Virus record (IMG/VR): IMGVR_UViG_3300027533_000013
Coordinates: 1 to 64,000 of that record
Direction: 5' to 3' (one strand)
DNA length: 64,000 nt
Origin: a virus
Taxonomy: Duplodnaviria > Caudoviricetes
A program made the position numbers and the translations under genes. Shown piece by piece: positions 1,193-62,901 of this stretch. Numbering within the stretch: the stretch's first letter is position 1; the number at the start of each line of letters is the position of its first letter. The notes beneath the pieces were generated by a model that was not told where the DNA came from, did no database searches, and saw nothing but the letters and a program-made list of their open reading frames with translations.

Positions 1193-1206
1193 TGCAATCA
1201 ATTGCA
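1193..1206. promoter_or_regulatory. 14-bp palindromic site TGCAATCAATTGCA (intergenic copy of genome-wide motif)
   Basis: exact match to consensus TGCAATYRATTGCA, ~21 copies in window. Confidence 0.7.
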
Positions 1207-1216
1207 GGGAGATGTG

Positions 1217-2108: not shown

Positions 2109-2139
2109 GGAGTCGTTTAACCCAAAGGAGTTGGGACAT

Positions 2140-3725: not shown

Positions 3726-3789
3726 GAAATCAATTGATTACGGGTCGTCCGGCAATTGATTGCAAAAAGTAAAATTATAATTGGTGGGT

Positions 3790-7117: not shown

Positions 7118-8485
7118 ATGAACAGTTACCTTCGGCAATCAACTGCATCGCAGTCACGGGCCTTGGGTCCGTTTGTAGACTCATCGAATGTTCCGGCAAC
7201 CGGTCTGTCCATCGCCAACACCGATATCAAAATCGTCGTGAACGGCGCAGCCAGTGTCAACAAGAATTCAGGTGGCGGCACGCATCGCGTGAACGGTGTC
7301 TATGGGGTGACGTGGGATGCGACCGATACCGCCACCGTTGGTGAGATGGAAGTCTCGGTGTATGTAGCTGGGGCCTTAGTGGTGTTTGCAACGTATACCG
7401 TGTTGGAAGAAGCGCAGTACGATTCACTATTCGGCGCAGCTTTGCTTAGTCTTGATGGATCGGGCAACGTGTTGATGGCACTGGGCAAGCTATCGATTAC
7501 TCCGGCCTCTGGAGTGGCGGTGGAAATATTGGGGCAAGGCTCTGGCGCAGGCGTCAGAATTGTCGGAGGAGCAACGGGGAAGGGCCTTGAGATCATTGGT
7601 GGAGCCACGAGCGGAAACGGTGTGCATATCTCCACAACGAATGGTGTCGGCCTTAATGTTGTGGCGGCTGGCACTGTCGCGGTTCAGTTGACGACATCGG
7701 CAGCAGCATCGGCGCTATCTATTGTTGGGGGCGCGAGTGCGACAGCAGCCGTTTACATCCTCGGTGGGGCGGGTAGTGAAGGACTCCGCATTGTGGGTGG
7801 CACGGACTCTGATGGCGTACGGATTCATGGTGGTGGCGCGGATGGTGTGGGTCTCCAAGTGCGTGGGGGAACGGCGGCGATTGGCGTGGATGTGCGCGGC
7901 GGGTCCACGAGTGGCGATGGCATCAAGATTTCTGCCACGAGTGGGCAAGCGGTGTGGCTGGAAAGCGCGAGTGGCCTTGGCCTCTACGTGAAGGGCGGTG
8001 GCGGCAACGAAGGCGGATACTTTGTAGGCGACGACGCGCCGGGTGTGCGTCTTGTTGGCGGTGATACTGCCGCAGGATTGCATTGTCAGAGTGGTGTTGG
8101 TAACGGGGCTGGTATTTTTGCCGTTGGTGGGACAACAGGACCGGGAATCGAAGTCCGAGGTGGCGGGTCCGATAGTATCGGTCTTTGGGTGAAGGGATCT
8201 GGCACAGGCGCAGGAATGACGGCTGTTGGCGGTGGGTCTGGGGTTCCGCTAAACATCGAGACGGTTCGTCAAATCACGGATGAATTACTGAAGCGTGATT
8301 GGACGGCCATCACCGGAGAGTCCGCACGGTCATTGTTGAATGCGGCCCGACTGCTCCGCAACCACTGGGAAATTGTGGCGGGTATCTTGACGGTCACGAA
8401 AGAAGACGATTCCACCACTGCGTGGCAAGCGGCGATTGCCACGACACCGGGTGCGGTGCCGATCACGGGGAGTGACCCCACGTAA
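7118..8485 (+). CDS. glycine-rich fibre-like protein
   Basis: LRQSTA..LGPFVD N-domain, ~13-aa GxGxxIxGG repeats, shared GSDPT C-terminus. Confidence 0.7.
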   Translation: MNSYLRQSTASQSRALGPFVDSSNVPATGLSIANTDIKIVVNGAASVNKNSGGGTHRVNGVYGVTWDATDTATVGEMEVSVYVAGALVVFATYTVLEEAQYDSLFGAALLSLDGSGNVLMALGKLSITPASGVAVEILGQGSGAGVRIVGGATGKGLEIIGGATSGNGVHISTTNGVGLNVVAAGTVAVQLTTSAAASALSIVGGASATAAVYILGGAGSEGLRIVGGTDSDGVRIHGGGADGVGLQVRGGTAAIGVDVRGGSTSGDGIKISATSGQAVWLESASGLGLYVKGGGGNEGGYFVGDDAPGVRLVGGDTAAGLHCQSGVGNGAGIFAVGGTTGPGIEVRGGGSDSIGLWVKGSGTGAGMTAVGGGSGVPLNIETVRQITDELLKRDWTAITGESARSLLNAARLLRNHWEIVAGILTVTKEDDSTTAWQAAIATTPGAVPITGSDPT

Positions 8486-9606: not shown

Positions 9607-10775
9607 TGGCACTCGTGCGTCTTCCAACACCGCAACTCATCTCTACCATACCCGCACAACCGTTGGCTGGGCAGATGAATGCGCTCAATGAATCCGTGGC
9701 GGGGATTGGCCATCTCCATCTTGAAGGTGGACCGGGGACTAAGACACTGTCGGCGGCTGGCGGTGGGGCCATTGTGTGGGCCAACTCTGGCACGCCAGTC
9801 TTTGCGAACGCTGGAACCACTCTACGTCTCGGGTTACAGGACGCTTCTCTCGTGAACTTCATGGAATCCGGCACGTTCGACGTGTATGCGGATTTGGTGG
9901 GCGGCTCGGCCACGATCCCCACGAACGGGTGGCTGACGACCGTCATGACTTCGGGGTCCAAGACGCTGAGCCATGGCGATGTGTTTGCGACCGCGTGGAA
10001 GATGCTGTCGCGTGCAGGCACTGATACCGTGTCGGCGCAGCGCACGTACGCATTTCCGTGGTCATCTGGTCTTGGGTATAACTTTTCAGTGGCTGTGTGG
10101 CCGCATGGCGCACACAATACGGGGACTGGTAATTCACGGCAGGAAGAAATTCCTGTTGCGTTTATACGGTTCGATGATGGCACGTATGGGTGGATTTCAG
10201 GCACGGCTCCGTGCATGCAGCCTAGTGGATCAAACTCGGCGTTTTCTGGTATTTCCACAGCAACAACGCCTGATGAATACGCGGCGGTGGTCGCCCTGTC
10301 GTTTCGAGCGACGATTTCACACTTTGCTTTTCTCCCCAATAACTTATCAGGCACAACGAATTTTTCGGTGAGCATTCTGAGTGATCCATGGGGCACTCCC
10401 ACGGATATCCCCGGTATGCCCGTCGCGTGGTCGGCTCAAAAACTTTACCAAGTACAAAATGCAGCGGTGTTGATTTCACATTTGCCGACACCGTTGACGG
10501 TCGAAGCAGGTGTACCGTTTGCCGTGTCGTGGTGGCCGACTGCATCGTCTTCGAATTTCAGTTACTTCGCCGTGACGAGTGGCTACGGTGCGATTCTGAA
10601 GAAAGCTCTGCCATTTTCGGTGGCGAAGGTGGCGGCTCGGACAGATCACACGGGGCCATTCGTAGAAACATCTGTGGATCATTTCCCATTGTTGGGGCTG
10701 TATCTGTCGCATCTTGAAGCTGGGGGTAGCATACAACCCAAGCTCCATGAATATCGACGGAGGCGCGTGTCATGA
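9606..10775 (+). CDS. putative virion protein (paralogue B)
   Basis: tandem paralogue of 8485-9606. Confidence 0.65.
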   Translation: MALVRLPTPQLISTIPAQPLAGQMNALNESVAGIGHLHLEGGPGTKTLSAAGGGAIVWANSGTPVFANAGTTLRLGLQDASLVNFMESGTFDVYADLVGGSATIPTNGWLTTVMTSGSKTLSHGDVFATAWKMLSRAGTDTVSAQRTYAFPWSSGLGYNFSVAVWPHGAHNTGTGNSRQEEIPVAFIRFDDGTYGWISGTAPCMQPSGSNSAFSGISTATTPDEYAAVVALSFRATISHFAFLPNNLSGTTNFSVSILSDPWGTPTDIPGMPVAWSAQKLYQVQNAAVLISHLPTPLTVEAGVPFAVSWWPTASSSNFSYFAVTSGYGAILKKALPFSVAKVAARTDHTGPFVETSVDHFPLLGLYLSHLEAGGSIQPKLHEYRRRRVS

Positions 10776-11248
10776 GATTACTTCGACAAAGCACGGCTGT
10801 TGATCTTCCACTTGGTCCGTTTGTGGATGGCACTGATGGTGTGACGCCTGAAACGGCTTTGTCCATCGTGCAGGCCAGCGTGCGTCTGAAGAAGAACAAC
10901 GGGGCATGGGCACAGATCAACGATGCGACCACAGCCACTCATGAGGAGTTCGGGTGGTATGAGAAGGAGTTTGATGCAACTGATTGCAATACGCTGGGGA
11001 CGTTGGTGGTGTCCGTTCAGATGGCGGGAGCGGTGCCTGTCTGGCATGAATTCATGGTGATTCCTGCTATTGTCTACGATGCGTTCATTTTGGGTATCGA
11101 GTTCATGCCCGTCGATCCGCACAAACAGAAATTCGCGGTGGCGGCGGGAAATCTCACGACCAAGAAACCAGACGGCACGACGGATACCGACTATTCACCC
11201 AAGCCTGTCACGTCAGATGCGGCGGCTCTTCCGATTATTGGTGCGTAA
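10772..11248 (+). CDS. putative virion protein
   Basis: LRQSTA..LGPFVD domain paralogous to N-terminus of 7118-8485. Confidence 0.65.
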   Translation: MRLLRQSTAVDLPLGPFVDGTDGVTPETALSIVQASVRLKKNNGAWAQINDATTATHEEFGWYEKEFDATDCNTLGTLVVSVQMAGAVPVWHEFMVIPAIVYDAFILGIEFMPVDPHKQKFAVAAGNLTTKKPDGTTDTDYSPKPVTSDAAALPIIGA

Positions 11249-13850: not shown

Positions 13851-16421
13851 GTGAGCGACTATCTCCTCAAAGAAGATGGTGACCGTCTCCTTCAGGAGAA
13901 TAACGATCCACTCCTGACGGCTTCGTCCGTTTCAAATCTTACGGGCGATTTTCTCGCATCTACCCTACAAGTTTTTGCCAGTGTTGTTGCCGCTGGTGCG
14001 GTGACTGTTGCGGGGGCATTCATCCCGACCGGCAGTCAGGTTTTCGAAGGCACCATCATACCGGGTGCCACGATTATCCTTGGTGCCCCGGTCGTTCCTA
14101 CCTCCGTTGCCTATTCAGGACATGTCGTCACGGTTGGTGGTCCACGAGCACCACAGTCGATGCTCGGGTTCTGGATGGGGGGCATTTCAAAACCCGCCAG
14201 CGGTGGTAGCCAAGCTGTTACCGGTGAACACGTTGCTTCGACCGTCCAGACTTTTAGTGGCACCGTTGCAGTTGGTGCCGTCAGTGTTTCAGGCGCACAT
14301 CTCGCGTCCACTGCACAGTTATTTGCAGGTACGGCATCGCCACAGCCAGTTGGAATTACTGGTGCCACGATTTCAGAGGGTAATCAGGTATTCGCTGGCA
14401 GTGTGTTACATGTAAGTGTTGGAGGTCTGACGTCGTACTTCGCGTTCTGGTTAGGTGGTGCATCAGCCGAAACAGGATTGGGAGTAGTTGGAGCCTACCT
14501 ACCGAGTGGTGTCCAACTCTTTGCAGGCACCGTCACGACCGGTGCTGTAACGGTTGATGGGGCACACATTGCCTCAACGTCTCAAGTCTTTGCAGGCACA
14601 GTTGCCCCAGCCCCTGTCGCAGTCAATGGCGCACATATCGCTTCTACCGCACAAGTATTTGCGGGTCAAGCGTGGTATCCCGCAGGGTATCGTTCGTTTG
14701 CAGCCCGATGGATGGGTGGTGCATCGGCTCCTGCGGCGTTCTCACAAGCGGTTACCGGGGCACATCTCGCATCCACGGCGCAGATATTCGAAGGTTCCGT
14801 TACGACAGGTGCCGTCACTGTTACGGGTGCCCATGTCGCATCAACCGTACAGGTATTTGCTGGATCAGTAACGACAGGTGCCGTGACGGTTGTTGGTGTT
14901 CACATCCCAACGACCAGTCAAATATTCCCCGGTTCAGTGGCTGTAGGAGCAGTCACGGCGGTTGGCGCACACATCCCCTCTACGGTTCAGCTATTCGCTG
15001 GTTCAGTTACGACTGGAGCCATCGGCGTTACGGGGGCGCATGTCGGCTCGACCGTTCAGGTATTTGATGGACTTGTCACGCAAGGTGCGGTGGCGATTGA
15101 TGGAGCGCATATTCCATCAACCGTGCAACTGTTTGCAGGCACGGCATCACCCCAGCCGGTTCCAGTTTCGGGCGCACATGTCGCGTCTACGGTTCAGCTA
15201 TTTGCAGGTTCTGTCCGACTGATCGGTGGGGCACACGTTCCCTCGACGCTCCAGATATTTGCAGGCACTGTTGCACCGGGTGCCGTCACCATCAGTGGTG
15301 CTCATCGAGCATCGACGCTGCAACTGTTTGCTGGCTCGGTCACAACTGGGGCCATCACGGTTGTCGGAGCACATGTCCCATCTACGGTTCAGGTCTTCGC
15401 AGGGTCTGTAGCACCCGGAGCCATCACATGTGTTGGAGCGCACATCTCCAGCACGCTCCAAATCTTTGCTGGGTCTGTTACGACAGGCGCGGTTACGGTC
15501 GTTGGCGCACACGTCCCCAGCACGGTGCAAGTCTTTGCGGGGTCAGTCACGGTTGGCGCGGCCACGGTGGTCGGGGCGCACATCCCGTCTACCCTGCAAC
15601 TGTTTGAGCCGACCATCCTGCAAGGTGGTCAGCTAGCAGGCGCGGAGTGGGTCACCAGCACGCAAGTATTTCCCGGTTCCGTGGCGGCAGGAGCCGTCAG
15701 CGTCACCGGGGCGCATTGTCCATCAACGCTCCAGATATTTGCTGGTCTAGTGACACGTGGAGTCATTGGGGCGTTCCTGCCGAGTGGGTCGCAAGTCTTT
15801 GCAGGCAGTGCGAATTACAACGTCACCGGAGCGCACGTCTCATCGACGGTTCAGACGTTCCCCGGCACGGTGCTCAGGGCGTTGGTTGGGGCGACCATCC
15901 CGGCTGGGTCACAGGTATTCCCCGGTAGCATTGGTGTTGGTGGCGCAGAAATATCTGGGGCGACCATCCCGAGTGGCAGTCAGGTGTTCCCCGGCAGCGT
16001 GCTTGTCGGAGCCATCACGGTTGGTGGAGCGCATCTACCATCAGGCAGTGCCACGTTCCCCGGCAGCATCACGGCAGGACCGGCATCAGTGGCTGGGGCG
16101 TTCGTGCCCAGCACGCTGCAAATCTTCCCCGGTTCGGTGGTGGCTGCATCCACGCAGGAAGTTGGTGGAGCGTTCATCGACTCAACCGCACAGGTATTCC
16201 CCGGTTTGGTGCAGCCCAAGGCCGGAACCTGCGTCAAGAGTGACGTAACCGTGCGGTGTCGGGTGACAGGTGCTACACTAGGGCCGACATTCACGGTCTG
16301 TTCAGACGGGGTCAAAGTGAAATATCTTGGGGTAGGTGCAATTGATTGCACAAATGACGGGGTGGTTGCTGAGGTGTCGGTGCGGACGAGAGTCACCGCT
16401 GATATCGAATTCTGTTGTTAG
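13851..16421 (+). CDS. long repeat protein (23-aa beta-rich repeats), probable fibre/appendage
   Basis: about 30 degenerate copies of GAHxxSTxQxFAGSVxxGAVTVx. Confidence 0.75.
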   Translation: MSDYLLKEDGDRLLQENNDPLLTASSVSNLTGDFLASTLQVFASVVAAGAVTVAGAFIPTGSQVFEGTIIPGATIILGAPVVPTSVAYSGHVVTVGGPRAPQSMLGFWMGGISKPASGGSQAVTGEHVASTVQTFSGTVAVGAVSVSGAHLASTAQLFAGTASPQPVGITGATISEGNQVFAGSVLHVSVGGLTSYFAFWLGGASAETGLGVVGAYLPSGVQLFAGTVTTGAVTVDGAHIASTSQVFAGTVAPAPVAVNGAHIASTAQVFAGQAWYPAGYRSFAARWMGGASAPAAFSQAVTGAHLASTAQIFEGSVTTGAVTVTGAHVASTVQVFAGSVTTGAVTVVGVHIPTTSQIFPGSVAVGAVTAVGAHIPSTVQLFAGSVTTGAIGVTGAHVGSTVQVFDGLVTQGAVAIDGAHIPSTVQLFAGTASPQPVPVSGAHVASTVQLFAGSVRLIGGAHVPSTLQIFAGTVAPGAVTISGAHRASTLQLFAGSVTTGAITVVGAHVPSTVQVFAGSVAPGAITCVGAHISSTLQIFAGSVTTGAVTVVGAHVPSTVQVFAGSVTVGAATVVGAHIPSTLQLFEPTILQGGQLAGAEWVTSTQVFPGSVAAGAVSVTGAHCPSTLQIFAGLVTRGVIGAFLPSGSQVFAGSANYNVTGAHVSSTVQTFPGTVLRALVGATIPAGSQVFPGSIGVGGAEISGATIPSGSQVFPGSVLVGAITVGGAHLPSGSATFPGSITAGPASVAGAFVPSTLQIFPGSVVAASTQEVGGAFIDSTAQVFPGLVQPKAGTCVKSDVTVRCRVTGATLGPTFTVCSDGVKVKYLGVGAIDCTNDGVVAEVSVRTRVTADIEFCC

Positions 16422-17037: not shown

Positions 17038-17075
17038 AGTTGAAGTTCGTAGTGACCAATGGAGTGGTGAAAAGC

Positions 17076-19043
17076 ATGGATTTCTATACATTTGGACTAG
17101 AAAAAGAAACGCTGGCAAAGGGTTCGACCGAGTTGCTCGGGGGCAAGGGTGCAGGACTTTTGTGGCTGGTCAATGAGGGTGTCCCGGTTCCACCGGGGTT
17201 CGTGATTCCGACCACGGTGTGGGCCGATTACGACCAAAAGCCCAAGACCACCATGAAGGCCATCGCCAAGGCTCTGCCGGAGTATCTGGCGAAGCTGGAA
17301 AAGCACTTCGGCTACATGCCGCTGCTGTCCGTCCGGTCTGGTGCGCGTGTCTCGTGCCCCGGCATGATGGACACCATCCTGAACGTCGGAATTGACAGTG
17401 ACAACGTCTCGCAGTGGATTGAACGTCTCGGGCCGAAATGCTTTGGCAATAGTTTTGAACGGCTGGTGACCATGTATGGTTCCGTCGTGGCGGGTATCCG
17501 TAAGGAATCGTTGGAAGGCAGTCTGAAGTCTCGGTTGGATGCGTATCAGTCGCACACTGGATCGGAGTTTCCGGACGCGAAGGCGCAGCTACTGGGCGCT
17601 ATTGAAGCGGTCTTCAAGTCGTGGGATAACGAACGAGCGAACATCTACCGCAAGGATCATGGCTACGACCGGGCATGGGGAACGGCGGTCACCGTGCAAG
17701 CGATGGTTTTCGGCAACCTGAACGAACAATCAGGAGCCGGGGTGCTGTTTTCGCGGAACCCGATGACGGGAGCCATGGCCGTGACTGGTGAGTGGGTGCC
17801 GAACGCTCAGGGTGAGGATATCGTGGACGGCAGCAAGACGCCGCTGTCACTGGACAAAATGAAGGGATGGAACGCATCGGTTCATGAGGAATTGGTGAGC
17901 CATGCCATCAATCTGGAGAACCTGAAGCGCGAGATGCTCGACATTGAATTCACGATTCAGGACGGCAAGCTGTATCTGCTGCAAGTGAGAACCGGCAAGC
18001 GGTCACCGCTGGCGGCGATCAAGATTGCGGTGGACATGGCCAAGCAACAGTTGATTACGCCGAAGGTTGCCATCAAGCGTGTGTCGCCCAAGGAATTTGA
18101 CTTGGCGCAAACGGTGACGGTGGACCCGAAGTTCACGAAGTCAGCGGCGTTCAGTGGCCTTGGAGCCAGCAACGGTGTCGCCATCGGCAAGCCGGTGTTT
18201 AGCAAGGAAGATGCAATCGCTTGCACAGAGCCGTGCATCCTCGTGACGCAAGAGACCACCCCGGAAGATATCGCTGGCATGAAGGCGGCGAAGGGGGTCA
18301 TCACCATGGTCGGTGGCGTGACATGCCACGCAGCGGTTGTGATGCGTCCGATGGGCAAGGCGTGCATCGTGGGCGTCGGTCAGAGCATCGAGTCGTTCAA
18401 GGACGTGGAAGTCATCAGCATGGACGGGCTGACGGGCCGGATCTGGACTGAGGTCGTTCCGACTGTCGGTGGCAAGGTCAACGGTGAGGTTCGTGAGTTT
18501 AACGAATTGGTGCGGCAAACACTTGGGATCATCCCGGTCATCTTCGATGTGCCGACTGTAGAGATGGACGAAGTTCTGCTGTATCTTGGCGACAAGGTTC
18601 TCAGCGATGATGCCATGGGTATCGTGACCAAGACGCTGGACAAGGTCAACAAGCTGTATTTGGACCTGACGCCATCGGCGGCTGAAGAACGGTTCCTGAA
18701 TATCGTGGGTGCCTACGGGCATACGCAACGACTGTTGGACTGGTTGGGGGGTCTGCCTGAGTCGCAGGTTGCCAAGTTGGTGGTGATTGCGAAACCTGAA
18801 CTGACTACGTCGCTTCCACGGCTGTCGTCCAGTTCTGACCTGCGGTCGCTGGTGCTCTCAGGGACTGACATCGTGATGGACGGGGGGCTGAATATCGCGG
18901 ACCCGGCAGTGAAGCGTGTGCTGGACTGGAAGAAGGCTGAGGGTGGAGCCATCGTGTCCATCGGTCAGTATCTGGAAGGCAGCAAGTCGATGATCAGTGT
19001 GTCGCAGGCACTGCACCTGATCGGGAATGGAGTGGTGCAATAA
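17076..19043 (+). CDS. PPDK-like dikinase (ATP-grasp + phospho-His domain) with non-canonical C-terminal domain
   Basis: LLGGKGAGL, PVPPGF, PLLSVRSGA..PGMMDTILNVG, VQAMVFGN, QGEDIV, DIEFTIQ..LLQVR, ETTPEDIAGM, GGVTCHAAVV; pyruvate-binding barrel absent. Confidence 0.9.
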   Translation: MDFYTFGLEKETLAKGSTELLGGKGAGLLWLVNEGVPVPPGFVIPTTVWADYDQKPKTTMKAIAKALPEYLAKLEKHFGYMPLLSVRSGARVSCPGMMDTILNVGIDSDNVSQWIERLGPKCFGNSFERLVTMYGSVVAGIRKESLEGSLKSRLDAYQSHTGSEFPDAKAQLLGAIEAVFKSWDNERANIYRKDHGYDRAWGTAVTVQAMVFGNLNEQSGAGVLFSRNPMTGAMAVTGEWVPNAQGEDIVDGSKTPLSLDKMKGWNASVHEELVSHAINLENLKREMLDIEFTIQDGKLYLLQVRTGKRSPLAAIKIAVDMAKQQLITPKVAIKRVSPKEFDLAQTVTVDPKFTKSAAFSGLGASNGVAIGKPVFSKEDAIACTEPCILVTQETTPEDIAGMKAAKGVITMVGGVTCHAAVVMRPMGKACIVGVGQSIESFKDVEVISMDGLTGRIWTEVVPTVGGKVNGEVREFNELVRQTLGIIPVIFDVPTVEMDEVLLYLGDKVLSDDAMGIVTKTLDKVNKLYLDLTPSAAEERFLNIVGAYGHTQRLLDWLGGLPESQVAKLVVIAKPELTTSLPRLSSSSDLRSLVLSGTDIVMDGGLNIADPAVKRVLDWKKAEGGAIVSIGQYLEGSKSMISVSQALHLIGNGVVQ

Positions 19044-32670: not shown

Positions 32671-32699
32671 TTGCAATTGAGTGCAAAAATCCGTAGACT
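32671..32699 (+). promoter_or_regulatory. putative morphogenesis-operon promoter overlapped by the 14-bp palindrome
   Basis: TTGCAA-17-TAGACT; TGCAATTGAGTGCA at 32672-32685 covers the -35 and spacer. Confidence 0.55.
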
Positions 32700-43649: not shown

Positions 43650-43871
43650 AGATGACCTTGAAACCGCTCAAGACAGACCATGCCACGCTAAAAATGGTGG
43701 TGTCGAAGCCTGTACCGAAGGCCAAGGCCCATCTCCAGTTGGTGACCAGACAGGGTGTGTCATCGGAACGAGCGAAGCAGTTACTGAGCTAGGAAAATAG
43801 TTGTTGCGTTCTTGCGTTGTCCTGTAAAATAAGACCCCGTGCAACTGATTGCAATTGTGAGTCAGTAACCC

Positions 43872-46364: not shown

Positions 46365-46604
46365 GTGACTGATAAACCGACACAGCTACCCACCGATCCC
46401 GACGACGAATCCGCTTCGCCACCGGAAGAAGGTGGTGAACGTCCTGATCAGGGACTTCCCGGCAAACCCGGTGGCATTGGTGGTCCCGGTAGACCCGATC
46501 AGGGGTTGCCCGGTCGTGGCCCCGGTGGACCGGGAAGCATCGGTGGTCCGAAGCCGACGCATCCGATTGCGCCGACACCCGAACCGAAGAAAGACAAGCG
46601 GTAG
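46365..46604 (+). CDS. Pro/Gly-rich small protein
   Basis: AGGAG RBS; two RPDQGLPG repeats, PTHPIAP. Confidence 0.55.
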   Translation: MTDKPTQLPTDPDDESASPPEEGGERPDQGLPGKPGGIGGPGRPDQGLPGRGPGGPGSIGGPKPTHPIAPTPEPKKDKR

Positions 46605-46673
46605 GGAAATTCTCCTGACGGTTGGCAATTGATTGCACGAATGGATCAGTTGCCAACCTGATTGGGGTGTAGA

Positions 46674-49006: not shown

Positions 49007-49948
49007 ATGACGAATCAGGAAGTTATCCAAAAAGCGGATATGGCGCTTGCGGATCTGGCGACGGCTGGCAAGCTGAATCCGGAGCAGACCGACCGCTTCA
49101 TCCGTACGCTCATTGACCAGCCCACCCTGTTGGCTTCCATCCGGACGGTCGCCATGGGCGCACCGGAGATGAAGATCAACAAGATCGGCTTCGGCTCCCG
49201 AGTGCTGCGACCTGCGATCAGCGCCACCGCCATGGCTGATTCGGATCGCGTGAAGCCGGATCTTGGACAGGTGAACTTGGCGACGAAAGAAGTCATCGCT
49301 GAAGTCCATCTGCCCTACGACGTGATCGAGGACAACATCGAGAAGGGCAACATCAACGTGCCGTTGCAGACCGGCGCGGGTGGTCTGCACCAGACCATCG
49401 TGGACCTGTTGGCCGAGCGTGCCGCGCTCGACTTGGAAGAGCTTGGCATTCAGGGTGACACCGCAAACCTTGCGGACGCCTATCTGGCTCTTCAGGACGG
49501 CTATCTGAAGCTGGCCACCGCGAACGTGACCAACGTGGGTGGCGTGTTCGACAAGGCGGCGGTCAAAGCCGCACTGAAGACCATGCCGACCCGGTATCTC
49601 CGGAACCGCAGTGCCATGTCGCACTTCGTGTCCGTGGACAACGAGACGGAAATCCGTGACCAGTACGGTGCTCGTCAGACCGCACTCGGTGACGCACAGG
49701 TGCAGGGTCTGCTCCCGGTCTACATCTACGGTTCCAAGGTGACCCCGGTCGCCCTGATGCCGGGACCGCAGGGCCTGTTCACCGATCCGATGAATCTCAT
49801 CTTCGGGATTCAGCGGAACATCATGATCGAGTACGACAAGGACATTCGTGCCCGTGTGTTCATCATCGTGCTGACCTGCCGCATCGACTTCGCCATCGAG
49901 GAAGTCAACGCGGTGGTCAAGTACACGGGCATTACCGGAAGCCGGTAG
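49007..49948 (+). CDS. major capsid protein (XkdG-like, HK97 fold)
   Basis: GKLNPEQ..FI, KIGFGSR, EDNIE, DLEEL.IQGD..DGYLK; strong codon bias. Confidence 0.92.
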   Translation: MTNQEVIQKADMALADLATAGKLNPEQTDRFIRTLIDQPTLLASIRTVAMGAPEMKINKIGFGSRVLRPAISATAMADSDRVKPDLGQVNLATKEVIAEVHLPYDVIEDNIEKGNINVPLQTGAGGLHQTIVDLLAERAALDLEELGIQGDTANLADAYLALQDGYLKLATANVTNVGGVFDKAAVKAALKTMPTRYLRNRSAMSHFVSVDNETEIRDQYGARQTALGDAQVQGLLPVYIYGSKVTPVALMPGPQGLFTDPMNLIFGIQRNIMIEYDKDIRARVFIIVLTCRIDFAIEEVNAVVKYTGITGSR

Positions 49949-49967: not shown

Positions 49968-49999
49968 AAGGGACTCTTCCGCAAGGGGGAGTCCCTTTT
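49968..49999 (+). terminator. rho-independent terminator
   Basis: AAGGGACTCTTCC-GCAA-GGGGGAGTCCCTT then T-run. Confidence 0.75.
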
Positions 50000-50012
50000 G
50001 CACTTGATTGCA

Positions 50013-53938: not shown

Positions 53939-54791
53939 TTACATATCCAACCTCAGCAATGGCGCGGGACTTCAGCGGAACTATGAACTGCTGAAGCAGG
54001 CATTGCAGGCCCGTGGGCACTCGGTGCATGGTGTGCAGTTCAACGCCAAGCCGTTGGTGGTGCCACCGGCTGACATCAATATCTTCGATGAGGTGGTGAC
54101 ACCTCTCGCTTTCCGAGCCGCCAAGGTCCAGTGGGCGATGCCACATCCCGAGTGGTGGTTTGGGATGTGGGATCAGTATCGCTGGGACAAGATTCTGGCA
54201 AAAACACACGACTGTGAGCGTATTTTCCAAGCGAAAGTGGGCAACCGATGCCAGTACCTTGGATGGGTGGCCAAAGACTTGGCCCGACCGGGCATCCCGA
54301 AGGAACGCAAATTCCTCCATGTATCTGGGAAATCCTCGTTCAAGAACACACAGGCCGTGATTTTCGGGTGTCATCAGGCCGGTGTCCCGTTGACCGTGGT
54401 TGGCGAAAAATCGGGTGGTGTTGCCCGAGTCTCCGAGCAAGAATTGATTCACTTGATGAATTCGCACTTTTGCCATGTCATGCCGTCCGCGTATGAGGGG
54501 TACGGTCATGTGCTGCATGAATCGCAGAGCACCGGGCAGATTCTGATCACGACTAATGCCCCACCGATGAATGAGATATGCCCCGCATTTTACGTGCCCA
54601 GTGTGGGGGTCAGACCGCACCACGCAGGAGTGTTGCATCAGGTATTACCGGGAGATGTGGCAAAAGCCGTGAAGTATGTCATGGCGATGGAACAGACCGA
54701 GATAGATCGGTTGAGTGCCGACGCCCGAACGTCATACGATGAAGATGTCAAACAGTTCAATGTGGCGTTGGATAAGTTGGTAAATCAGTGA
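53916..54791 (+). CDS. GT-B fold glycosyltransferase (GT4-like)
   Basis: FLHVSGKS..KNT, PS.YEGYGHVLHE, TTNAPPMNE; start uncertain (GTG 53928 possible). Confidence 0.8.
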   Translation: MRGIVRFNYISNLSNGAGLQRNYELLKQALQARGHSVHGVQFNAKPLVVPPADINIFDEVVTPLAFRAAKVQWAMPHPEWWFGMWDQYRWDKILAKTHDCERIFQAKVGNRCQYLGWVAKDLARPGIPKERKFLHVSGKSSFKNTQAVIFGCHQAGVPLTVVGEKSGGVARVSEQELIHLMNSHFCHVMPSAYEGYGHVLHESQSTGQILITTNAPPMNEICPAFYVPSVGVRPHHAGVLHQVLPGDVAKAVKYVMAMEQTEIDRLSADARTSYDEDVKQFNVALDKLVNQ

Positions 54792-55327
54792 CCTTCACAA
54801 ATTACGGACATGAAGTAGCCCTGTGGAATGTGTTGCAATCAATTGCATCGCAGCGGAAGGTGGCTGCTTATCTGGAGGTGGGGGTCCGCTACGGCAATTC
54901 ATTGGCGGTGGTGCTGTCTCAGCACTTCCCGTATCGGTTGGCGCTTTGTGATACGTGGGGTGGTGAGTATGGGGGCGAGTCGTTTGGTGGTCCGACGCAC
55001 ATCGAGCGTCTGTTGCGGGACTTGAAATACACCAATCCGACTACGTATCTCAGCGGTAATTCGCATGATCTGTTGAAGAAGGCTATCGGCCAGTTCGATT
55101 TGATTCTGGTGGATGGTGACCACAGTGCGGCGGGGGCCAGAGAGGATCTGGACGACTGTTGGCGACTGCTGATGCCGGATGGGCTGTTGGTGTTCGATGA
55201 CCTTAATCACCCGTCGCATCCCTATTTACTGACGGTATACCAAGATTTCGTAAAGACCGTCAATGCTACCGTGGTGCATGAAGATATGACCCCGATGGGT
55301 GTGGGCGTTCTGTGCAAGACCGCGTAA
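54788..55327 (+). CDS. class I SAM-dependent methyltransferase (Methyltransf_24-like)
   Basis: YLEVGVRYGNS, FDLILVDGDHS, GLLVFDD. Confidence 0.88.
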   Translation: MTFTNYGHEVALWNVLQSIASQRKVAAYLEVGVRYGNSLAVVLSQHFPYRLALCDTWGGEYGGESFGGPTHIERLLRDLKYTNPTTYLSGNSHDLLKKAIGQFDLILVDGDHSAAGAREDLDDCWRLLMPDGLLVFDDLNHPSHPYLLTVYQDFVKTVNATVVHEDMTPMGVGVLCKTA

Positions 55328-56112
55328 TCGTCCCAACGTATGACCGACCCGAGATGTTGTGGCTGTGTTTGGAGCATATTGCGCGTAGCCCAGATAGTAA
55401 ACACCTGTCGGTGATGGTGTATGCGGATGCACACGTTGGGCATACGACACCTCGGGAGGAAATTGAACAAGTCGTAGACAAGTTTCCTCACCTAAACATT
55501 CAAGTGGGCTTTCGTAATCCCCATCCGTTCCACGGGAACAGTTTCAACGTCTTGATGGCGTTCAAGGACGCTTTTTATGAGCCACAGGTGCGGTATGTCT
55601 TCATGATTGAAGACGACGTGATGGTTCATCCGCAGTTCTTTCAGTGGCATTGGACGGCACATGCGGCGAAGACGCTGGGATGCAGCATCGGCGTCATTAA
55701 AGAGCCACAATACGGCCCGTATGCGTCTCTCGGTGTGTGTTTTCGGCGGGAGATGCTGGGGTTGATTGTGCCGCACTGTCAGGTGGCGTACTTTCACAAT
55801 CTTCGGATGTATTGCAAGACACGGTTTGCCCCGTCAAAGTTTGATTGCGAGCAGGATGGGCTGTTCTGTCGTGTCTTGATCGGGCATTCGATTGCGTGGC
55901 CACCGATTCCCTATGCACAACATGTGGGGTGGTATGGTTACCACCGGAAGAAGAGTATTCGACCGGTTGGCACGTTAGCAGAACGCTATTATCAGGTAAA
56001 GCACGTATTGACCAGTGCCACGGCTTTGCGCCAGTGGGTGAAAGATTTTGGGGATATTAAGGTCTTGCAATTGAGTGCAACGAGTGGCACAGTATCTGGT
56101 GCAGCCGAGTAG
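55312..56112 (+). CDS. GT-A fold glycosyltransferase
   Basis: VPTYDRPE.L, IEDDV, EQDGL, HVGWYG. Confidence 0.75.
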   Translation: MQDRVIVPTYDRPEMLWLCLEHIARSPDSKHLSVMVYADAHVGHTTPREEIEQVVDKFPHLNIQVGFRNPHPFHGNSFNVLMAFKDAFYEPQVRYVFMIEDDVMVHPQFFQWHWTAHAAKTLGCSIGVIKEPQYGPYASLGVCFRREMLGLIVPHCQVAYFHNLRMYCKTRFAPSKFDCEQDGLFCRVLIGHSIAWPPIPYAQHVGWYGYHRKKSIRPVGTLAERYYQVKHVLTSATALRQWVKDFGDIKVLQLSATSGTVSGAAE

Positions 56113-57934: not shown

Positions 57935-58396
57935 ATGGCCAAGCAAACCGTTAAGATAGCGGACCTAGCTCAACTCGCACGACCCGTCGATATTTCTGAA
58001 GACCAGCAGATCATGGTGAGAGCTTTGAGTCTCCGTGAGATGGTGGGCTTGTTTATCGATTCTAGAGAAGTGTTTCTACCGTTGTATGCGGCAGGACTTG
58101 AAGGCAAGATGAGTACGGAAGAACTTGGTCCATTCTTGCTCACCGCGCCTGAAGTTGTCGCTAAGATTATTGCATTGGCTTCTGATGAACCGGATTCCGC
58201 CCCGGTTGTAGAGAAGCGTATGCCTGCGACCGTGCAATTGATTGCATTGTCCGAAATCTGGAAGGCGTCGGTACCCGACCCAAAAAAAGCGAGAGAGTTG
58301 TTATCCGAGGTGACAACTCTGTTGCAAAAGCTCAACGAAAAAGGCGAACAGTTGACCCAACCGATGCCTTCTCCGATGGCCTTGCAACCTCAGTAG
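57935..58396 (+). CDS. tail assembly chaperone (lambda gpG analogue)
   Basis: between tail tube and TMP; AAGGAG RBS; slippery A AAA AAA at 58282-58288. Confidence 0.75.
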   Translation: MAKQTVKIADLAQLARPVDISEDQQIMVRALSLREMVGLFIDSREVFLPLYAAGLEGKMSTEELGPFLLTAPEVVAKIIALASDEPDSAPVVEKRMPATVQLIALSEIWKASVPDPKKARELLSEVTTLLQKLNEKGEQLTQPMPSPMALQPQ

Positions 58397-58593: not shown

Positions 58594-61500
58594 ATGAGTA
58601 ACGGCTCGTCCTCCGCGATGGAACTGAAAGTTCTGATCAGTGTGTTGCAGAATGGCACGGCTCTGCAAACGATGCTGGGTCAGGTCAATCAACTTTCTCA
58701 AGCTCTTTCGGCACTCCAACTCAAAGCAGCCACGGCAGGCGTAGCAGCGGGGGGTATTGGTGGGGGCACTGGGAACACCGCAGCGGCAATAGCCGCAGCC
58801 AATGCCTTAGCGGCAGCGTCAGGTAATGCAGCGGCTGGAATTACTGGGGCAGGGGCGGCGGCAGCGGCTGCGGCTCCTAAGATGTTGACACTTGAACAAG
58901 CCGTCAATAAAACGTGGAGAGCTATACAGTTTTTAGCTGGAGGGTTTTTAGCTTACCAGAGTGTTCGGTTTATAAAAAACATTGCAGATGTTGCTGCAAG
59001 AACAGAAGTTCTGAATACCGTATTGCACGTGGTGGCCCTCAATGCCGGGTATACGGAACAACAGATCGATAAAGTGTCCCGAGGTGTCCAGCGTTTGGGC
59101 ATCACTGCACAGTCAGCCAATCAATCGCTGACGCAGTTCCTGCAAGCCGGGTTGAAAATCGAATTCGCAGAACAATTGGCCCGAGCGTCACAGGATTTGG
59201 CCGTTGTTTCTGGGATGGACTCGTCGCAGACCTTCCAACGGTTGCTGGTCAACATTCAGCAGTTGGATACGTTGGGCCTGCGGCATATGGGCATCATTGT
59301 TTCCCGCACAGAAGCCGAAGCGAAGTTCGCAAATTCGTTGAAGACGTCAGTCAATGCTCTGTCACAGCGGCAAAAACAGGAATCCTTGATGATCGCTGTC
59401 ATCGAGAAGGCCCGTGGGCTGGAAGGAGCCTACGAAGCCGCGATGGGGAACGTCGGCAAGCAGTTGACGTCGTTGACTCGGTATACACAAGACTTGCGGA
59501 GTGAAATTGGTAAGCATCTGTTGCCAGCGTATTCCGCCATCATCTCGGAACTGTCGTTGTTTTTGTCCAAGATGCAGGATCTGGCGATTGCTAGTAGTAC
59601 CAATATGGATTGGGCTGAAAGGCTAGCCACGGTTACACGAACACTGGCGCATTGGTTTTTTCAGGTTGTCGAAGTCATCATCAAGTACCGTCAAGCTATT
59701 TACACCTTGGTTGCCGCGTACGGAGCGTACTGGGCTATTGTGACGGGTCGAGCGATCTGGGCACATCTCATTACGGTCGTTACAACGCTGACGACGAGCG
59801 TGCTCAGTTCGGCTGAAGCTATTGTGAAAGCGACACGAGCGACCTACGCTTGGATTGCCGCGTTGCAATTGTTACGAGGTGCTCAAGCGACTAATGCTGT
59901 CACACAGACTGGGCAATTTCTGTTGTTTCCCATTGAAAAAGAAACTCGGTTGGTTACCGGTATTAAGTCGGTAGTGGGGTGGCTGAAGACACTCGGTCTG
60001 TGGTTACTTGAAGCCAGTCGAATTTCGTTGGTGCTACGTGCGGCATGGGCGGGTCTTGTTCCAATTGTTGCAGGATTGGGACTCCCATTGATTGGATGGA
60101 TCGCTGGCATAGTTGCGGCAGTAACAGCATTTGGAGCGTTTACCGTTGCTCTGGTGAAGTTCACATCGGTCGGAACGATGGTGTCTTCGGTCATCGATAA
60201 GCTCAGGAATGCTTTTAGTGCGCTGACGAGGATTGGTATTGGTGACAAGACATGGGAGGTGTTGACGAACGCGGCAAACACTTTTAGTGATTCCATCACG
60301 CAACTGAAGATCAATATGGAAGCTCTGTTCAGGGTAATGGAGCAACTGCCCGGTAATCCTGTCAATAAGGTGAAACTTGGGCTGTCCATTATTGATCTGG
60401 CGATAGACGTAGAAATCGCCAAAATCAAGAAATTGATCGAGTGGCTTGAAAAGCTCGGCATTATTAAGGTCAAGGCTCCAGCCCCCGGAGAACGTAGTGA
60501 GGAATCTCTACGGCTGGAGCAGCAACTGAATGATAAAACGGCTGAATTGGCAGAAGCCAAAGAAGCTGAGGAACTTGCCAAAACGGCATTCGGAGCGGCT
60601 AATAAAGCCGGTAAATATTCAGAAATCAAGCGCACCGAAGAAGAACTAAAGAAGTTGTCCGAGGAAGTGAAGAGGTTGCTCAAGCAACGGGACGACCTCG
60701 TTGAAAAAAGTAGACAAACCGATCCTGAAGCCTTAGCAGCATCGGAAGCCCATGCCAGACGGTCGAAGTTTGAACAAGATTTGAACACTCTTGTTTCAGC
60801 GTCGAATGACGCCAAGACGAAGTTGTTGAAGGTCAATATTCTAGATGGCCTTATCACGACGAAAGAATTTGACGAGAAGCGTGGGCAATTGAAAGTGATA
60901 CTTGATGCCCTCGATAAGCTCCGAACTAGCGCGGCTCGTGCGGCAGGTATGGGGCGTACTGGGGCAGATGGAAGATTTGTCGCGCCACCGGGACAACCCG
61001 GCCTTACAACTCTCTCTGATGATTTACGAGGATTACGTGATCAGGCTTTGGCTAGTATTGAAGGAGCCAAAGTCATGTCGGGTGCTCCAGGCCTCATTTC
61101 AGATTTGAAGGGTTTTGATGAGGAGATGGCGAGGATACGACGCACCGTTACGTTGACGCCCAAAGATGAACAGTTGTTGCAGAATTTGGAACAGGTAGCA
61201 CGTCTGAGGGCAGAAGAAGGTGAACGCTCCGTATTGGCTCCGCTGACTGCGATTCGTAAAGCACGTTTTGAGGCTGTTGAGAAACAGTTGAGGAGCAGTC
61301 TGGAAGAACAGTTAGATATCCAAAAGAATGCGAATGAACAAGCGGAGACGATCAATAAAGAGTCACTAGAGCGTGGGTTGCTGTCCGTTCAGGAGTACTA
61401 CAACCGACGACGTCGAGCAGCCAGCGATGCGTATGGCATCGAATTGATGTTGGCGACTCAGAACGTCGAGGCGATGAAACGGAGAGTCGTTCAAGTTCGT

Positions 61501-62901
61501 GGTCAGGATGAACCAACACGAATTGCGGCACGGGAAGCTCTTGCAGAAGCTGAGCAACAACGTCGTCAGGTAGTAAACCAAAGAGCCACGTCAGTTACTG
61601 CGTTTGACGCGGAAGAACGTAACGCGATTTTGGCGTTTGATCGTAAGCGAACCGATGCAGCATTGGCGTCTGCTTCTGCCTATGGGAGTGAAACAGAAGC
61701 TCTGAATGCGTTGAATAATCAGTATCTGTTGCGGGTAGAGGCACTTGGTGGAGACATAGAAGCTGAGAGGATCGCTAAGGCCGAGTTGGTGTTGAACACG
61801 TTGAAGACGCAAATAGAGTTTGAAGAGCGAAGAACACAAGCTGAAATTGAGGCTACGAAAGCCAAATCGGCGTATTTGGACGTGTCACAGGCTGAAGTGG
61901 ATCTTGCCAAGCAAAGAATTGCCATTGGAGAAAAACTCGGTGCTCTCACCACGTATGAAGCGATGCAGGCGAGGAATGCACTGACTAACAGACAGATAGA
62001 GATTGATACGGCAAAAAAGGCTGGCAAAGAAGACGAATTAGCGCAGAAACGCCTGCAAGTGAAACAGGCGCAAGCGAATATCGACAAATTGATAACTGCT
62101 GGGTTTGCCGCTGACAACGAATTTATGCTGAAAGCGAACGCTGCATTGCGGCAGGCGCAGGCAGAAGTGTTGGGCTTGGAAACCGCTGTGCTCGGGCTGC
62201 AAGGGACCATTGAAGAAGGTCGAGCGGGTATTGAGAGCTATGGTCAGACACTCAAAGAAGATTTTGTAAAGGGGTTCTCTGACGCATTGACGCAGACCAT
62301 TACTGATTTCAAGAAGGCCGGGGACGCATGGATCAATTTGGGTAGGAGTATTTCGAACCAGATTGTCGATGTCTTTATGACCGCGTTCACTCAACGCTTG
62401 TTCGCCAAGATAGGTCTGTTTAAGTTTGTCGATGCGTTAATGAATCGTATTTTCGGAGGTGGTGGGGGTGGGGGTAAGTCGGGTGGACTTGGACTTCCGG
62501 GTGTCGTACCTACACCCTTCCTTGCTGGAGGTGGTCCAGTCAATGGCCCCGGCACAGGCACGAGCGATTCGATCCCGGCCATGGTGTCAGCCGGTGAGCA
62601 CATCATGCCTGCGTCGAAAGCCGCCAAGTGGATGCCCGTGTTGGAAGGTATCCGACTGGGCAGGATCACACCGGCCTTTGCACTGGGTGGCGTGGTGGCG
62701 TTGCAATCAATTGCCGCAGGACCAGTCATCCCAAGACGGTATGCCGGTGGTGGGATGGTTATGACCGATGCTGGCGCGTCAGCCGTGGTACCGGGTGCGA
62801 CCAACGGCAACATGACCATTGCGCTTCATCCTGACGCCCTGAACATGACGATGCGAGACTGGTTGGAGCATGAAGTCGTGCGTCAGCACGGGAGACGGTG
62901 A
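58594..62901 (+). CDS. tape measure protein
   Basis: 1435 aa, Ala-rich/coiled coil, hydrophobic middle, C-terminal GGPVNGPGTGTSDSIPAMVSAGE. Confidence 0.92.
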   Translation: MSNGSSSAMELKVLISVLQNGTALQTMLGQVNQLSQALSALQLKAATAGVAAGGIGGGTGNTAAAIAAANALAAASGNAAAGITGAGAAAAAAAPKMLTLEQAVNKTWRAIQFLAGGFLAYQSVRFIKNIADVAARTEVLNTVLHVVALNAGYTEQQIDKVSRGVQRLGITAQSANQSLTQFLQAGLKIEFAEQLARASQDLAVVSGMDSSQTFQRLLVNIQQLDTLGLRHMGIIVSRTEAEAKFANSLKTSVNALSQRQKQESLMIAVIEKARGLEGAYEAAMGNVGKQLTSLTRYTQDLRSEIGKHLLPAYSAIISELSLFLSKMQDLAIASSTNMDWAERLATVTRTLAHWFFQVVEVIIKYRQAIYTLVAAYGAYWAIVTGRAIWAHLITVVTTLTTSVLSSAEAIVKATRATYAWIAALQLLRGAQATNAVTQTGQFLLFPIEKETRLVTGIKSVVGWLKTLGLWLLEASRISLVLRAAWAGLVPIVAGLGLPLIGWIAGIVAAVTAFGAFTVALVKFTSVGTMVSSVIDKLRNAFSALTRIGIGDKTWEVLTNAANTFSDSITQLKINMEALFRVMEQLPGNPVNKVKLGLSIIDLAIDVEIAKIKKLIEWLEKLGIIKVKAPAPGERSEESLRLEQQLNDKTAELAEAKEAEELAKTAFGAANKAGKYSEIKRTEEELKKLSEEVKRLLKQRDDLVEKSRQTDPEALAASEAHARRSKFEQDLNTLVSASNDAKTKLLKVNILDGLITTKEFDEKRGQLKVILDALDKLRTSAARAAGMGRTGADGRFVAPPGQPGLTTLSDDLRGLRDQALASIEGAKVMSGAPGLISDLKGFDEEMARIRRTVTLTPKDEQLLQNLEQVARLRAEEGERSVLAPLTAIRKARFEAVEKQLRSSLEEQLDIQKNANEQAETINKESLERGLLSVQEYYNRRRRAASDAYGIELMLATQNVEAMKRRVVQVRGQDEPTRIAAREALAEAEQQRRQVVNQRATSVTAFDAEERNAILAFDRKRTDAALASASAYGSETEALNALNNQYLLRVEALGGDIEAERIAKAELVLNTLKTQIEFEERRTQAEIEATKAKSAYLDVSQAEVDLAKQRIAIGEKLGALTTYEAMQARNALTNRQIEIDTAKKAGKEDELAQKRLQVKQAQANIDKLITAGFAADNEFMLKANAALRQAQAEVLGLETAVLGLQGTIEEGRAGIESYGQTLKEDFVKGFSDALTQTITDFKKAGDAWINLGRSISNQIVDVFMTAFTQRLFAKIGLFKFVDALMNRIFGGGGGGGKSGGLGLPGVVPTPFLAGGGPVNGPGTGTSDSIPAMVSAGEHIMPASKAAKWMPVLEGIRLGRITPAFALGGVVALQSIAAGPVIPRRYAGGGMVMTDAGASAVVPGATNGNMTIALHPDALNMTMRDWLEHEVVRQHGRR

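Follow-up and report, generated by a model that had tools for sequence, protein, structure and literature searches.

A regularly spaced 14-bp palindrome shared across a lineage of proteobacterial siphoviruses, and a candidate family of proteins that may read it

The palindrome array of the genome

The window, that is, the whole 64,000-nucleotide stretch analyzed here, is the first 64 kb of a Caudoviricetes genome, the IMG/VR virus record IMGVR_UViG_3300027533_000013 (119,701 bp, rated 100% complete), the whole of which is labelled G000. With a GC content of 55%, G000 carries about 184 genes on the plus strand and two doubtful calls on the other strand, as judged with a simple in-house gene caller, and the genes of the window include those for a PPDK-like kinase, a family A DNA polymerase, the portal, the major capsid protein, and a tape-measure homologue. 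Dispersed in and between these genes are 7 exact copies of the 14-bp palindrome TGCAATYRATTGCA and 13 copies with one mismatch, hence 20 copies with at most one mismatch, and dinucleotide shuffles of the window lead one to expect 0.00 and 0.03 copies, respectively. An earlier reading made from the sequence only had reported about 21 copies and a chance expectation well below 0.1. Its coordinates for the 7 exact copies, for the 13 one-mismatch copies, and for a two-mismatch copy at 7134 were all correct, and the one omission was a second two-mismatch copy, at 15124.

The sequence-only reading had further proposed that the site coats the genome, and the copies indeed span all 119,701 bp, which fits a dimeric protein binder. 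There are 13 exact copies in G000, 34 with at most one mismatch, and 37 with at most two, and a reversed-pattern control on the whole genome returned 0 copies. Spacing is regular: the mean gap is 3.2 to 3.5 kb with a coefficient of variation (CV) of 0.42 to 0.45 (about 1 by chance), and the gaps between sites with at most one mismatch range from 1,232 to 7,224 bp. None of 5,000 random placements matched this regularity, whether sites were placed anywhere or restricted to gene junctions.

Alignment of the 37 copies in G000 revealed zero conservation beyond the 14 bp, and a miniature mobile repeat (of the MITE or REP type) is ruled out by this lack of conserved flanks. Twelve of the 14 positions are palindromic and only the central CA/TG step is asymmetric, its two orientations occurring 16:14 in G000 and at most 2:1 in the other genomes. 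As had been claimed for the window, the tolerated changes are symmetric between half-sites over the G000 copies: T>G at position 1 is mirrored by A>C at position 14, A>C/G at position 5 by T>G/C at position 10, and T>C at position 6 by A>G at position 9. The mismatches are one-sided, and compensating changes in the partner half-site were not seen. The restriction of conservation to 14 bp, the one-sidedness of the mismatches, and the concentration of variation in the four central bases across lineages suggest that the sites are most likely read by a sequence-specific DNA-binding protein.

Selection on the in-gene sites acts at the DNA level, as had been supposed, and this is supported because synonymous-codon shuffles erase the in-gene copies. 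When synonymous codons were permuted genome-wide, which keeps proteins and codon usage and leaves intergenic DNA unchanged, the 34 sites of G000 fell to a mean of 10, about the number of intergenic copies, with a maximum of 13 in 200 shuffles. The same procedure lowered the count from 35 to 12 in the Stenotrophomonas phage DLP5 and from 52 to 31 in G003, an IMG/VR relative. The claim that in-gene sites are read in varied frames holds in that the frames do differ, but one of them, xTG CAA TYR ATT GCA, encoding LQ[SL]IA, dominates with 19 of 27 in-gene sites, likely because any other frame would require a Cys codon or introduce a stop.

The copies found in the window are the following.

1193 to 1206: exact copy, TGCAATCAATTGCA; intergenic, 1 nt past the stop of gene 676 to 1191 and 10 nt before the start at 1217.
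3751 to 3764: one mismatch, GGCAATTGATTGCA; intergenic.
7134 to 7147: two mismatches, GGCAATCAACTGCA; first codons of gene 7118 to 8485.
10975 to 10988: one mismatch, TGCAACTGATTGCA; within gene 10772 to 11248.
15124 to 15137: two mismatches, TGCAACTGTTTGCA, positions 6 and 9 changed; within gene 14160 to 16421; the weakest member, possibly a chance match.
16337 to 16350: exact copy; 3' end of gene 14160 to 16421.
18212 to 18225: one mismatch, TGCAATCGCTTGCA; within the PPDK-like kinase gene 17040 to 19043.
21731 to 21744: one mismatch, TGCACTCAATTGCA; within gene 21422 to 22162.
24948 to 24961: one mismatch, TGCAATCAGTTGCA; within the family A DNA polymerase gene 24235 to 26607.
29416 to 29429: one mismatch, CG-centered, GGCAATCGATTGCA; 13 nt before the start at 29443.
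32672 to 32685: one mismatch; intergenic, 61 nt upstream of the portal gene 32747 to 34612.
36825 to 36838: exact copy; within gene 36455 to 38092.
38254 to 38267: one mismatch; first codons of gene 38238 to 40094.
40406 to 40419: exact copy; start of gene 40405 to 41583.
41878 to 41891: exact copy, CG-centered, TGCAATCGATTGCA; start of gene 41874 to 43649.
43840 to 43853: one mismatch; intergenic, 18 nt before the start at 43872.
46624 to 46637: one mismatch; intergenic, downstream of gene 46365 to 46604.
49999 to 50012: one mismatch; intergenic, 50 nt past the stop of the major capsid gene 49007 to 49948.
54834 to 54847: exact copy; 5' part of gene 54788 to 55327.
56066 to 56079: one mismatch; 3' end of gene 55369 to 56112.
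58233 to 58246: exact copy; within gene 57935 to 58396.
62702 to 62715: one mismatch, TGCAATCAATTGCC; 3' end of the 1,435-aa tape-measure homologue gene 58594 to 62901.

The PPDK-like protein of this list combines a PPDK_N domain with a PEP-utilizers mobile domain, at the start of which the palindrome at 18212 lies, and its gene is found beside thymidylate-synthase homologues in relatives. It is probably part of a pathway for DNA modification, because the DNA of the related phage DLP3 resists 15 restriction enzymes. At opposite ends of the record, window positions 18 to 437 and genome positions 118446 to 119351 hold open reading frames (ORFs) 43% and 39% identical to the DNA ligase of DLP5, so the record may begin within or beside a ligase region that was duplicated or split. 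The only sizeable minus-strand ORF (genome 77955 to 78275, 106 aa) has no homologue in five relatives and may be either spurious or a lineage-specific regulator.

Distribution in the lineage and placement of the sites

A megablast search of the window against cultured phages returned zero matches, and a scan of genome contigs with the capsid protein matched only an unrelated Firmicute prophage. At the protein level, the portal of G000 is 49% identical to those of the Stenotrophomonas phages DLP5, DLP3, and Summit (Delepquintavirus), and more distant portal relatives belong to Rhizobium, Vibrio, and Rhodobacter siphoviruses. DLP5 contains 35 sites with at most one mismatch in 96.5 kb, and four IMG/VR relatives, G001 to G004, contain 27 to 52 each, all regularly spaced. 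In the six genomes formed by G000, DLP5, and G001 to G004, a site occurs every 2 to 4 kb or so, the longest site-free stretch is about 7.5 kb, and the CV is 0.45 to 0.63, with at most 17 of 5,000 random placements equally regular in any of them (P ≤ 0.0034).

Besides G000, arrays were found in 12 further genomes or contigs, among them a contig of 98.8 kb from a Burkholderia ubonensis assembly, with 9 sites found over 15.8 kb. In an exact-match scan of IMG/VR, every multi-copy locus encodes proteins of this clade, over a GC range of 39 to 64%, and the single-copy loci mostly lack them. The forms met in more distant cultured phages are given below; for SIO-2, RcZahn, L338C, RcKickapoo, and HJ05, the counts refer to the 26 to 41 kb around the gene of the candidate binder described in the next section.

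Rhizobium phage RHph_TM16: 23 sites in 100 kb, TGCAA-YAWA-TTGCA.
Vibrio phage SIO-2: 12 sites in 41 kb, degenerate form.
Rhodobacter phage RcZahn: 10 sites in 41 kb, TGCAATYAACTGCA.
Rhizobium phage L338C: 25 sites in 40.5 kb, TGCAAC-NN-GTTGCA.
Rhodobacter phage RcKickapoo: 21 sites in 40.6 kb, TGCAATCGATTGCA, a perfect palindrome throughout.
Aeromonas phage HJ05: 8 sites in 26 kb, TG[CA]AAC-NN-GTTGCA.

By comparison, shuffled TM16 sequence matches the generic pattern about twice per 100 kb. The part that is constant across lineages consists of the inverted half-sites TGCAA and TTGCA set 4 bp apart, whereas the four central bases vary, and such fixed half-sites with a lineage-variable center would be expected of a dimer that reads the half-sites. 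The same half-sites recur in phages of alpha-, beta-, and gammaproteobacteria whose portal proteins are less than 50% identical.

The central bases themselves may reflect a second constraint. The hexamer ATCGAT is strongly avoided in G000 and in relatives that include DLP5, with counts for G003 (0 observed versus 28 expected), G004 (0 versus 27), G001 (1 versus 22), TM16 (21 versus 55), and G000 (35 versus 57), and among these genomes CG-centered sites occur only in G000, which has four. A CG center is used throughout in RcKickapoo and in the variant TGCAAACGATTGCA, whose flanking base prevents the formation of ATCGAT. Since a CG center would otherwise create the avoided hexamer, CG is probably the preferred center and CA/TG a compromise with restriction avoidance. 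Of note, intergenic sites summed over the six genomes carry CA on the coding strand 68 times and TG 29 times, a bias not seen in G000 that could be mutational or could betray a slight functional asymmetry.

Positions are also shared. In the PPDK-like gene, the site occupies the identical alignment column in five genomes (G000, DLP5, G001, G002, and G003), in a helicase gene it does so in three, and the tape-measure site at 62702 shares its alignment column with a site in G003. A site lies just downstream of the major capsid gene in five of seven genomes and upstream of the portal gene in four of six. These coincidences indicate that some site positions are old.

Sites are enriched in noncoding DNA, with 9 of 34 in G000 (2.5 expected), 31 of 52 in G003 (4.6 expected), and 18 of 27 in G004 (2.2 expected). 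The in-gene share, 25 of 34 in G000, is smaller in G003 and G004, and in-gene sites favor the first or last few percent of the gene. Intergenic sites typically begin 0 to 12 nt past the upstream stop codon or directly after a terminator-like hairpin and, where a strong σ70-type promoter is present, end 4 to 12 bp upstream of its −35 element, TTGACA. In L338C, 11 of 25 sites lie 7 to 12 bp upstream of the −35 element of a stereotyped promoter family, TTGACAAAGGA; the early region of TM16 holds a cluster of five promoter-linked sites; and, among the strong promoter-like sites, 10 of 22 are preceded by a palindrome in G003 and 6 of 14 are in G001. G000 has its own family of near-consensus σ70-type promoters, TTGACA(AAC)-17-TGnTAnnnT, at window positions 3025, 16935, 17009, 22163, and 40101 and, beyond the window, at genome positions 80165, 88877, 96601, 97389, 98762, 110000, and 117443. 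This family serves nucleotide-metabolism, replication, and small early genes, and only its members at 88877 and 117443 have a palindrome just upstream.

Because only a minority of the gaps between genes hold a site, 9 of 86 in the case of G000, and a nearby promoter is lacking for most sites, even coverage appears to be the main constraint, with sites occupying the positions that cost least. For the same two reasons, a role at promoters only was rejected. A σ54 promoter was rejected by hand, its GG-to-GC spacing being off by one or two bases, and a translation signal, suggested by a sharp peak 17 to 22 nt before start codons, is better accounted for if sites are confined to the minimal spacers that separate a stop codon from the following ribosome-binding site.

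A full-text literature search by site sequence and phage names yielded no description of the array, the only sequence matches being primers and a synthetic hairpin. The string "palindrom" is absent from the DLP3 paper (PMC7326821), and the mentions of repeats or motifs listed from it concern other things. The array thus appears to be previously undescribed. Dispersed operator-like palindromes are an already known kind of feature, and what appears new is the sequence, its lineage-wide conservation, its regular spacing, and the candidate binder family.

Candidate binding proteins

The sequence-only reading had recognized no cognate regulator in the window, and our best candidate indeed lies outside it. 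This 262-aa protein is encoded at genome positions 97463 to 98251, at the end of a replication/recombination module and behind a strong promoter of its own. Its family is present in every array-bearing genome sampled, and tblastn detected homologues in 50 cultured phages, whose hosts are Vibrio, Rhizobium, Rhodobacter, Stenotrophomonas, and Aeromonas. The family counts more than 400 homologues, among them gp066 of DLP5, gp074 of L338C, and gp86 of RcKickapoo. The G000 protein is 52 to 62% identical to those of DLP5-like phages, and the motifs YRKAxYLIxIY and GW[TS]K are nearly invariant. A site is found 60 to 145 nt upstream of the start of the gene in 15 of 17 lineages, which are mutually related, so that the agreement does not amount to 17 independent events. 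In a comparison of seven genomes, no other core gene family tested was preceded by a site as often (six of seven).

An AlphaFold2 model of the 262-aa protein has a mean pLDDT of 77.5, reaching about 90 over residues 60 to 160; residues 1 to 25 are disordered and the chain is all-helical from residue 30. In VIA-align, residues 42 to 165 matched the ParB DNA-binding domain (DBD) bound to parS (Z 8.2), Spo0J (Z 7.2), and the KorB DBD bound to its operator (Z 6.9, 107 of 114 residues), values to be read with the caution that Z below about 8, or below about 13 for helical proteins, may reflect a common helical arrangement. Lower scores were obtained with KorB bound to CTP, SopB, VirB, and P1 ParB. 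Foldseek placed ParB, Noc, Spo0J, and KorB complexes among its weak top matches, all with E of about 1, a viral structure library gave weak matches to DUF3102 and partition proteins, and a feature-based search returned the same ParB-type leads below its own reliability threshold. The scores are moderate, and for the central helical domain we take a helix-turn-helix (HTH) DNA-binding fold of the ParB/KorB/Noc type to be likely. The ParB N-terminal/Srx CTPase domain, PF02195, was not matched in six family members (E up to 5), and hhalign detected no similarity between the 262-aa family and the proteins of the clade that contain a ParB N-domain.

A second candidate is a 148-aa protein (genome 91060 to 91506) encoded between an SF2 helicase and a UvsX-like recombinase. 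It has a winged HTH of the MerR type, with profile matches to the DNA-binding domains of CarA/CarH and to RacA (E of about 3e-4 to 2e-3), and it is present in G000, DLP5, G001 to G004, SIO-2, and the Burkholderia contig. We rejected it as a universal binder, since there is no match in RcZahn and TM16 matches only its basic N-terminal part. Its putative recognition helix also differs between genomes that have the same site.

Other candidates fared no better. The ParB-N-domain protein of the clade (DLP5 gp114 family) was rejected as the binder, being absent from G000, and so was the 225-aa protein encoded just upstream of the 262-aa gene (genome 96694 to 97371), which by gene order is missing beside the 262-aa gene in SIO-2, RcZahn, TM16, and L338C. 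The DLP3 homologue of this 225-aa gene is gp61, and virion preparations of DLP3 contain this basic 204-aa protein together with RecA, the 262-aa homologue being unlisted (PMC7326821, Table 4). PDB sequence-profile searches with a 122-aa family and with the family resembling single-stranded DNA-binding proteins (SSBs) yielded nothing useful. Genome positions 88950 to 89711 encode a conserved protein of 253 aa whose tail is acidic and which shows the pattern H-x13-C-x11-C-x2-C; it resembles an SSB of the T4 gp32 type, and its homologues in RcZahn and RcKickapoo are annotated as such.

Possible functions of the array

We propose, with a probability of roughly 45%, that the palindromes constitute a KorB-like genome-wide operator or anchor array for a phage-encoded dimeric protein, most likely of the 262-aa family. 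A phage factor is preferred to a host factor because the array follows the phage lineage across three proteobacterial classes. By analogy, the 262-aa protein would bind the site as a dimer, and where sites lie 4 to 12 bp before the −35 element of strong σ70-type early promoters, it would control or insulate those promoters. Such control would probably be negative feedback, the promoter of the binder itself included. The site-linked promoters are near consensus and should need no activator; for this reason, and because the promoter of the candidate itself carries a site, negative control or insulation is favored. The remaining sites, at gene junctions and within genes, would extend the reach of the protein over the co-directional genome by bridging, roadblocking, or organizing it.

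Our working model is KorB of plasmid RK2. This plasmid has 12 palindromic OB sites over about 60 kb, and a distant plasmid preserves both their sequence and their position; the distance from an OB site to a promoter that it controls ranges from a few bp to more than 1 kb (PMC13768133, PMC11790492). The phage array likewise consists of a short palindrome dispersed over a replicon (34 per 120 kb, compared to 12 per ~60 kb), is kept in sequence and partly in position between distant relatives, includes sites located anywhere from a few bp upstream of a −35 element to more than 1 kb from any promoter, and places a site before the gene of the presumed binder, the putative DBD of which aligns with that of KorB (Z 6.9). 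It differs in that the phage site is unrelated in sequence to OB and is strikingly regular in its spacing, that no KorA-like, TrbA-like, or ParA partner was identified in the phage, and that the candidate has no detectable ParB/CTPase N-terminal domain. We do not assume the sliding-clamp part of the model, because the 262-aa protein is without a CTPase domain, and a clamp is not expected here.

Phages also offer parallels. The conserved inverted repeats of phiC31 and the 17-bp repeats of Cluster O mycobacteriophages occur in many intergenic copies, and those of phiC31 are bound by the repressor and often adjoin early promoters. Sequences, lineages, and hosts are different, and those repeats are mostly intergenic, whereas up to about three-quarters of the present sites lie in genes (25 of 34 in G000) and are regularly spaced.

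Several observations weigh against the KorB-like proposal. Most sites are not at promoters, and in G000 itself only 2 of 23 strong promoter-like sites (12 of which are intergenic or site-linked) have a palindrome within 40 nt upstream. Where a site does adjoin a promoter, it lies upstream of the promoter core without overlapping it, which is unusual for a steric repressor, and regular spacing and conserved in-gene positions would equally suit an organizing or DNA-metabolism role. As to the candidate, G000 and SIO-2 have no site upstream of the 262-aa gene, sequence profiles from Pfam, NCBIfam, and the PDB give no match to the family, and the VIA-align list is topped by an unrelated Rubisco-chaperone domain (Z 9.4). 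Finally, without the ParB N-terminal domain, the sliding-clamp mechanism of KorB is not simply transferable to this protein.

The most probable rival, although unlikely in our estimation, is genome organization or partition, in which the bound protein would compact, bridge, or tether the phage chromosome to the membrane, the pole, or the nucleoid, for the benefit of a carrier-state episome or a replication compartment, with effects on transcription being secondary. That the spacing in six genomes is regular and never exceeds about 7.5 kb agrees with such a role, as does the preference of sites for terminator-promoter spacers, where transcription should be lowest and the protein would not be displaced. 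The conservation of the half-sites reaches deep, which would be expected of a housekeeping function like that of parS, and the 262-aa model resembles the DBDs of ParB, Noc, and SopB. Moreover, DLP5 is reported to persist as a phagemid (PMC5834331), and the 98.8-kb relative is a separate contig in the Burkholderia ubonensis assembly. The array resembles parS/ParB, the Noc-binding sites, the ram sites of RacA, and matS/MatP, in which dimer-bound palindromes of 13 to 16 bp are dispersed along a replicon and organize or anchor it. For palindromes of 14 bp dispersed along a chromosome, RacA and Noc provide precedents. The strong sequence conservation is also parS-like, because many sites and one protein must change together, and the predicted fold of the candidate resembles the DBDs of ParB and Noc. 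In contrast to these systems, the density is far higher here, with one site per 2 to 3.5 kb genome-wide, and no ATPase partner and no membrane- or pole-targeting element were identified; in particular, no ParA-type ATPase was identified beside the 262-aa gene, and G000 lacks the ParB-N-domain protein of its clade. One class of sites is, furthermore, tied to promoters: 11 of the 25 L338C sites keep a fixed distance of 7 to 12 bp from one promoter family, and similar cases exist in G001 to G003, which points to at least one class of sites acting in connection with promoters.

Somewhat more speculative, and improbable as we see it, is the idea that a CTPase-less, ParB-DBD-like protein on evenly spaced TGCAA-N4-TTGCA sites constitutes an ancient genome scaffold shared by this lineage of 80- to 120-kb proteobacterial siphoviruses (SIO-2/VHS1-, Delepquintavirus, RcZahn-, RcKickapoo-, TM16-, and L338C-like). 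If true, this would be a phage chromatin or poly-centromere serving episomal persistence, a replication compartment, or genome-wide silencing, of which we know no described phage equivalent.

We regard as distinctly improbable that the sites serve replication or recombination as loading, pausing, or exonuclease-stop points, Chi-like and bidirectional by virtue of being palindromic, such that any break or fork would be within a few kb of a site. The array always accompanies genes for DnaB, primase, a gp32-like SSB, an SF2 helicase, UvsX/RecA, a Cas4-like exonuclease, and RuvC, both the 148-aa and the 262-aa candidates are encoded inside that module, the spacing of 2 to 3.5 kb implies a coverage requirement, and the 262-aa model also resembles domain IV of DnaA (Z 5.2 to 5.6). 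However, we know of no Chi or priming signal that is a 14-bp palindrome, the sequence bears no mark of a nick or origin such as AT-rich unwinding elements or iterons, and neither the fixed distance to early promoters nor the site before the promoter of the candidate would be explained.

Of the candidates that the sequence-only reading had put forward, a stoperator-like repressor and a host LacI-type factor are both disfavored. In stoperator-type immunity, a lysogeny repressor would block initiation and elongation all over the prophage, as in phage L5, and we consider this very doubtful here. Cluster A mycobacteriophage stoperators, the targets of L5 gp71, do resemble the array in comprising dozens of 13- to 14-bp sites, at promoters as well as in and between genes, that were first found by their repetition; site number and density are comparable, and DLP5 and DLP3 are reported to be temperate (PMC5834331, PMC7326821). 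Yet stoperators lack symmetry, point in the direction of transcription, and bind a monomer (PMC9283540, PMC6550527), whereas the present site is palindromic, and stoperators diverge together with the repressor among related phages, resulting in heteroimmunity (PMC6550527), whereas the present half-sites are conserved across a very wide lineage, including phages with portal identity below 50%. Identical half-sites in three proteobacterial classes would make very distant phages homoimmune, and the promoter-linked sites are located upstream, not downstream, of promoters.

Even less probable is recognition by a host protein, either a LacI/PurR/CytR-type factor or another conserved one. In shape, GCAA-N4-TTGC around a YR or CG step, the site is reminiscent of PurR, CytR, and cre operators, and RcKickapoo displays the CG-centered form throughout; nevertheless, multi-copy occurrence tracks the phage lineage irrespective of host, in alpha-, beta-, and gammaproteobacteria and at a GC content of 39 to 64%, and the central bases vary by phage lineage. 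Just as improbable is that the sites are acted on by a nuclease, nickase, or DNA-modifying enzyme or function as hairpins in transcripts: the resistance of DLP3 DNA to restriction enzymes implies that it is probably modified (PMC7326821) and the mild CA-over-TG bias of intergenic sites is compatible with such roles, but a hairpin stem would have 5 bp at most with no compensatory changes seen, sites downstream of a terminator and upstream of the next promoter would not be reliably transcribed, and Rfam has no match in the window. Restriction targets are usually avoided rather than enriched, and ATCGAT, which the CG-centered form would create, is itself avoided.

In practice, the site is a marker by which members of the lineage can be recognized in metagenomes, and its frozen half-sites and adapting center, for instance in the avoidance of ATCGAT, offer a natural experiment on the recognition of many sites. 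If our proposal is true, many cultured phages, including Stenotrophomonas and Vibrio phages considered for therapy, share an unnoticed genome-wide pair of cis-element and protein, and a function would be gained for a "hypothetical" protein that ranks among the most conserved of the lineage. The pair would then provide a handle on the regulation and organization of large, co-directionally transcribed phage genomes and on episomal persistence without an integrase.

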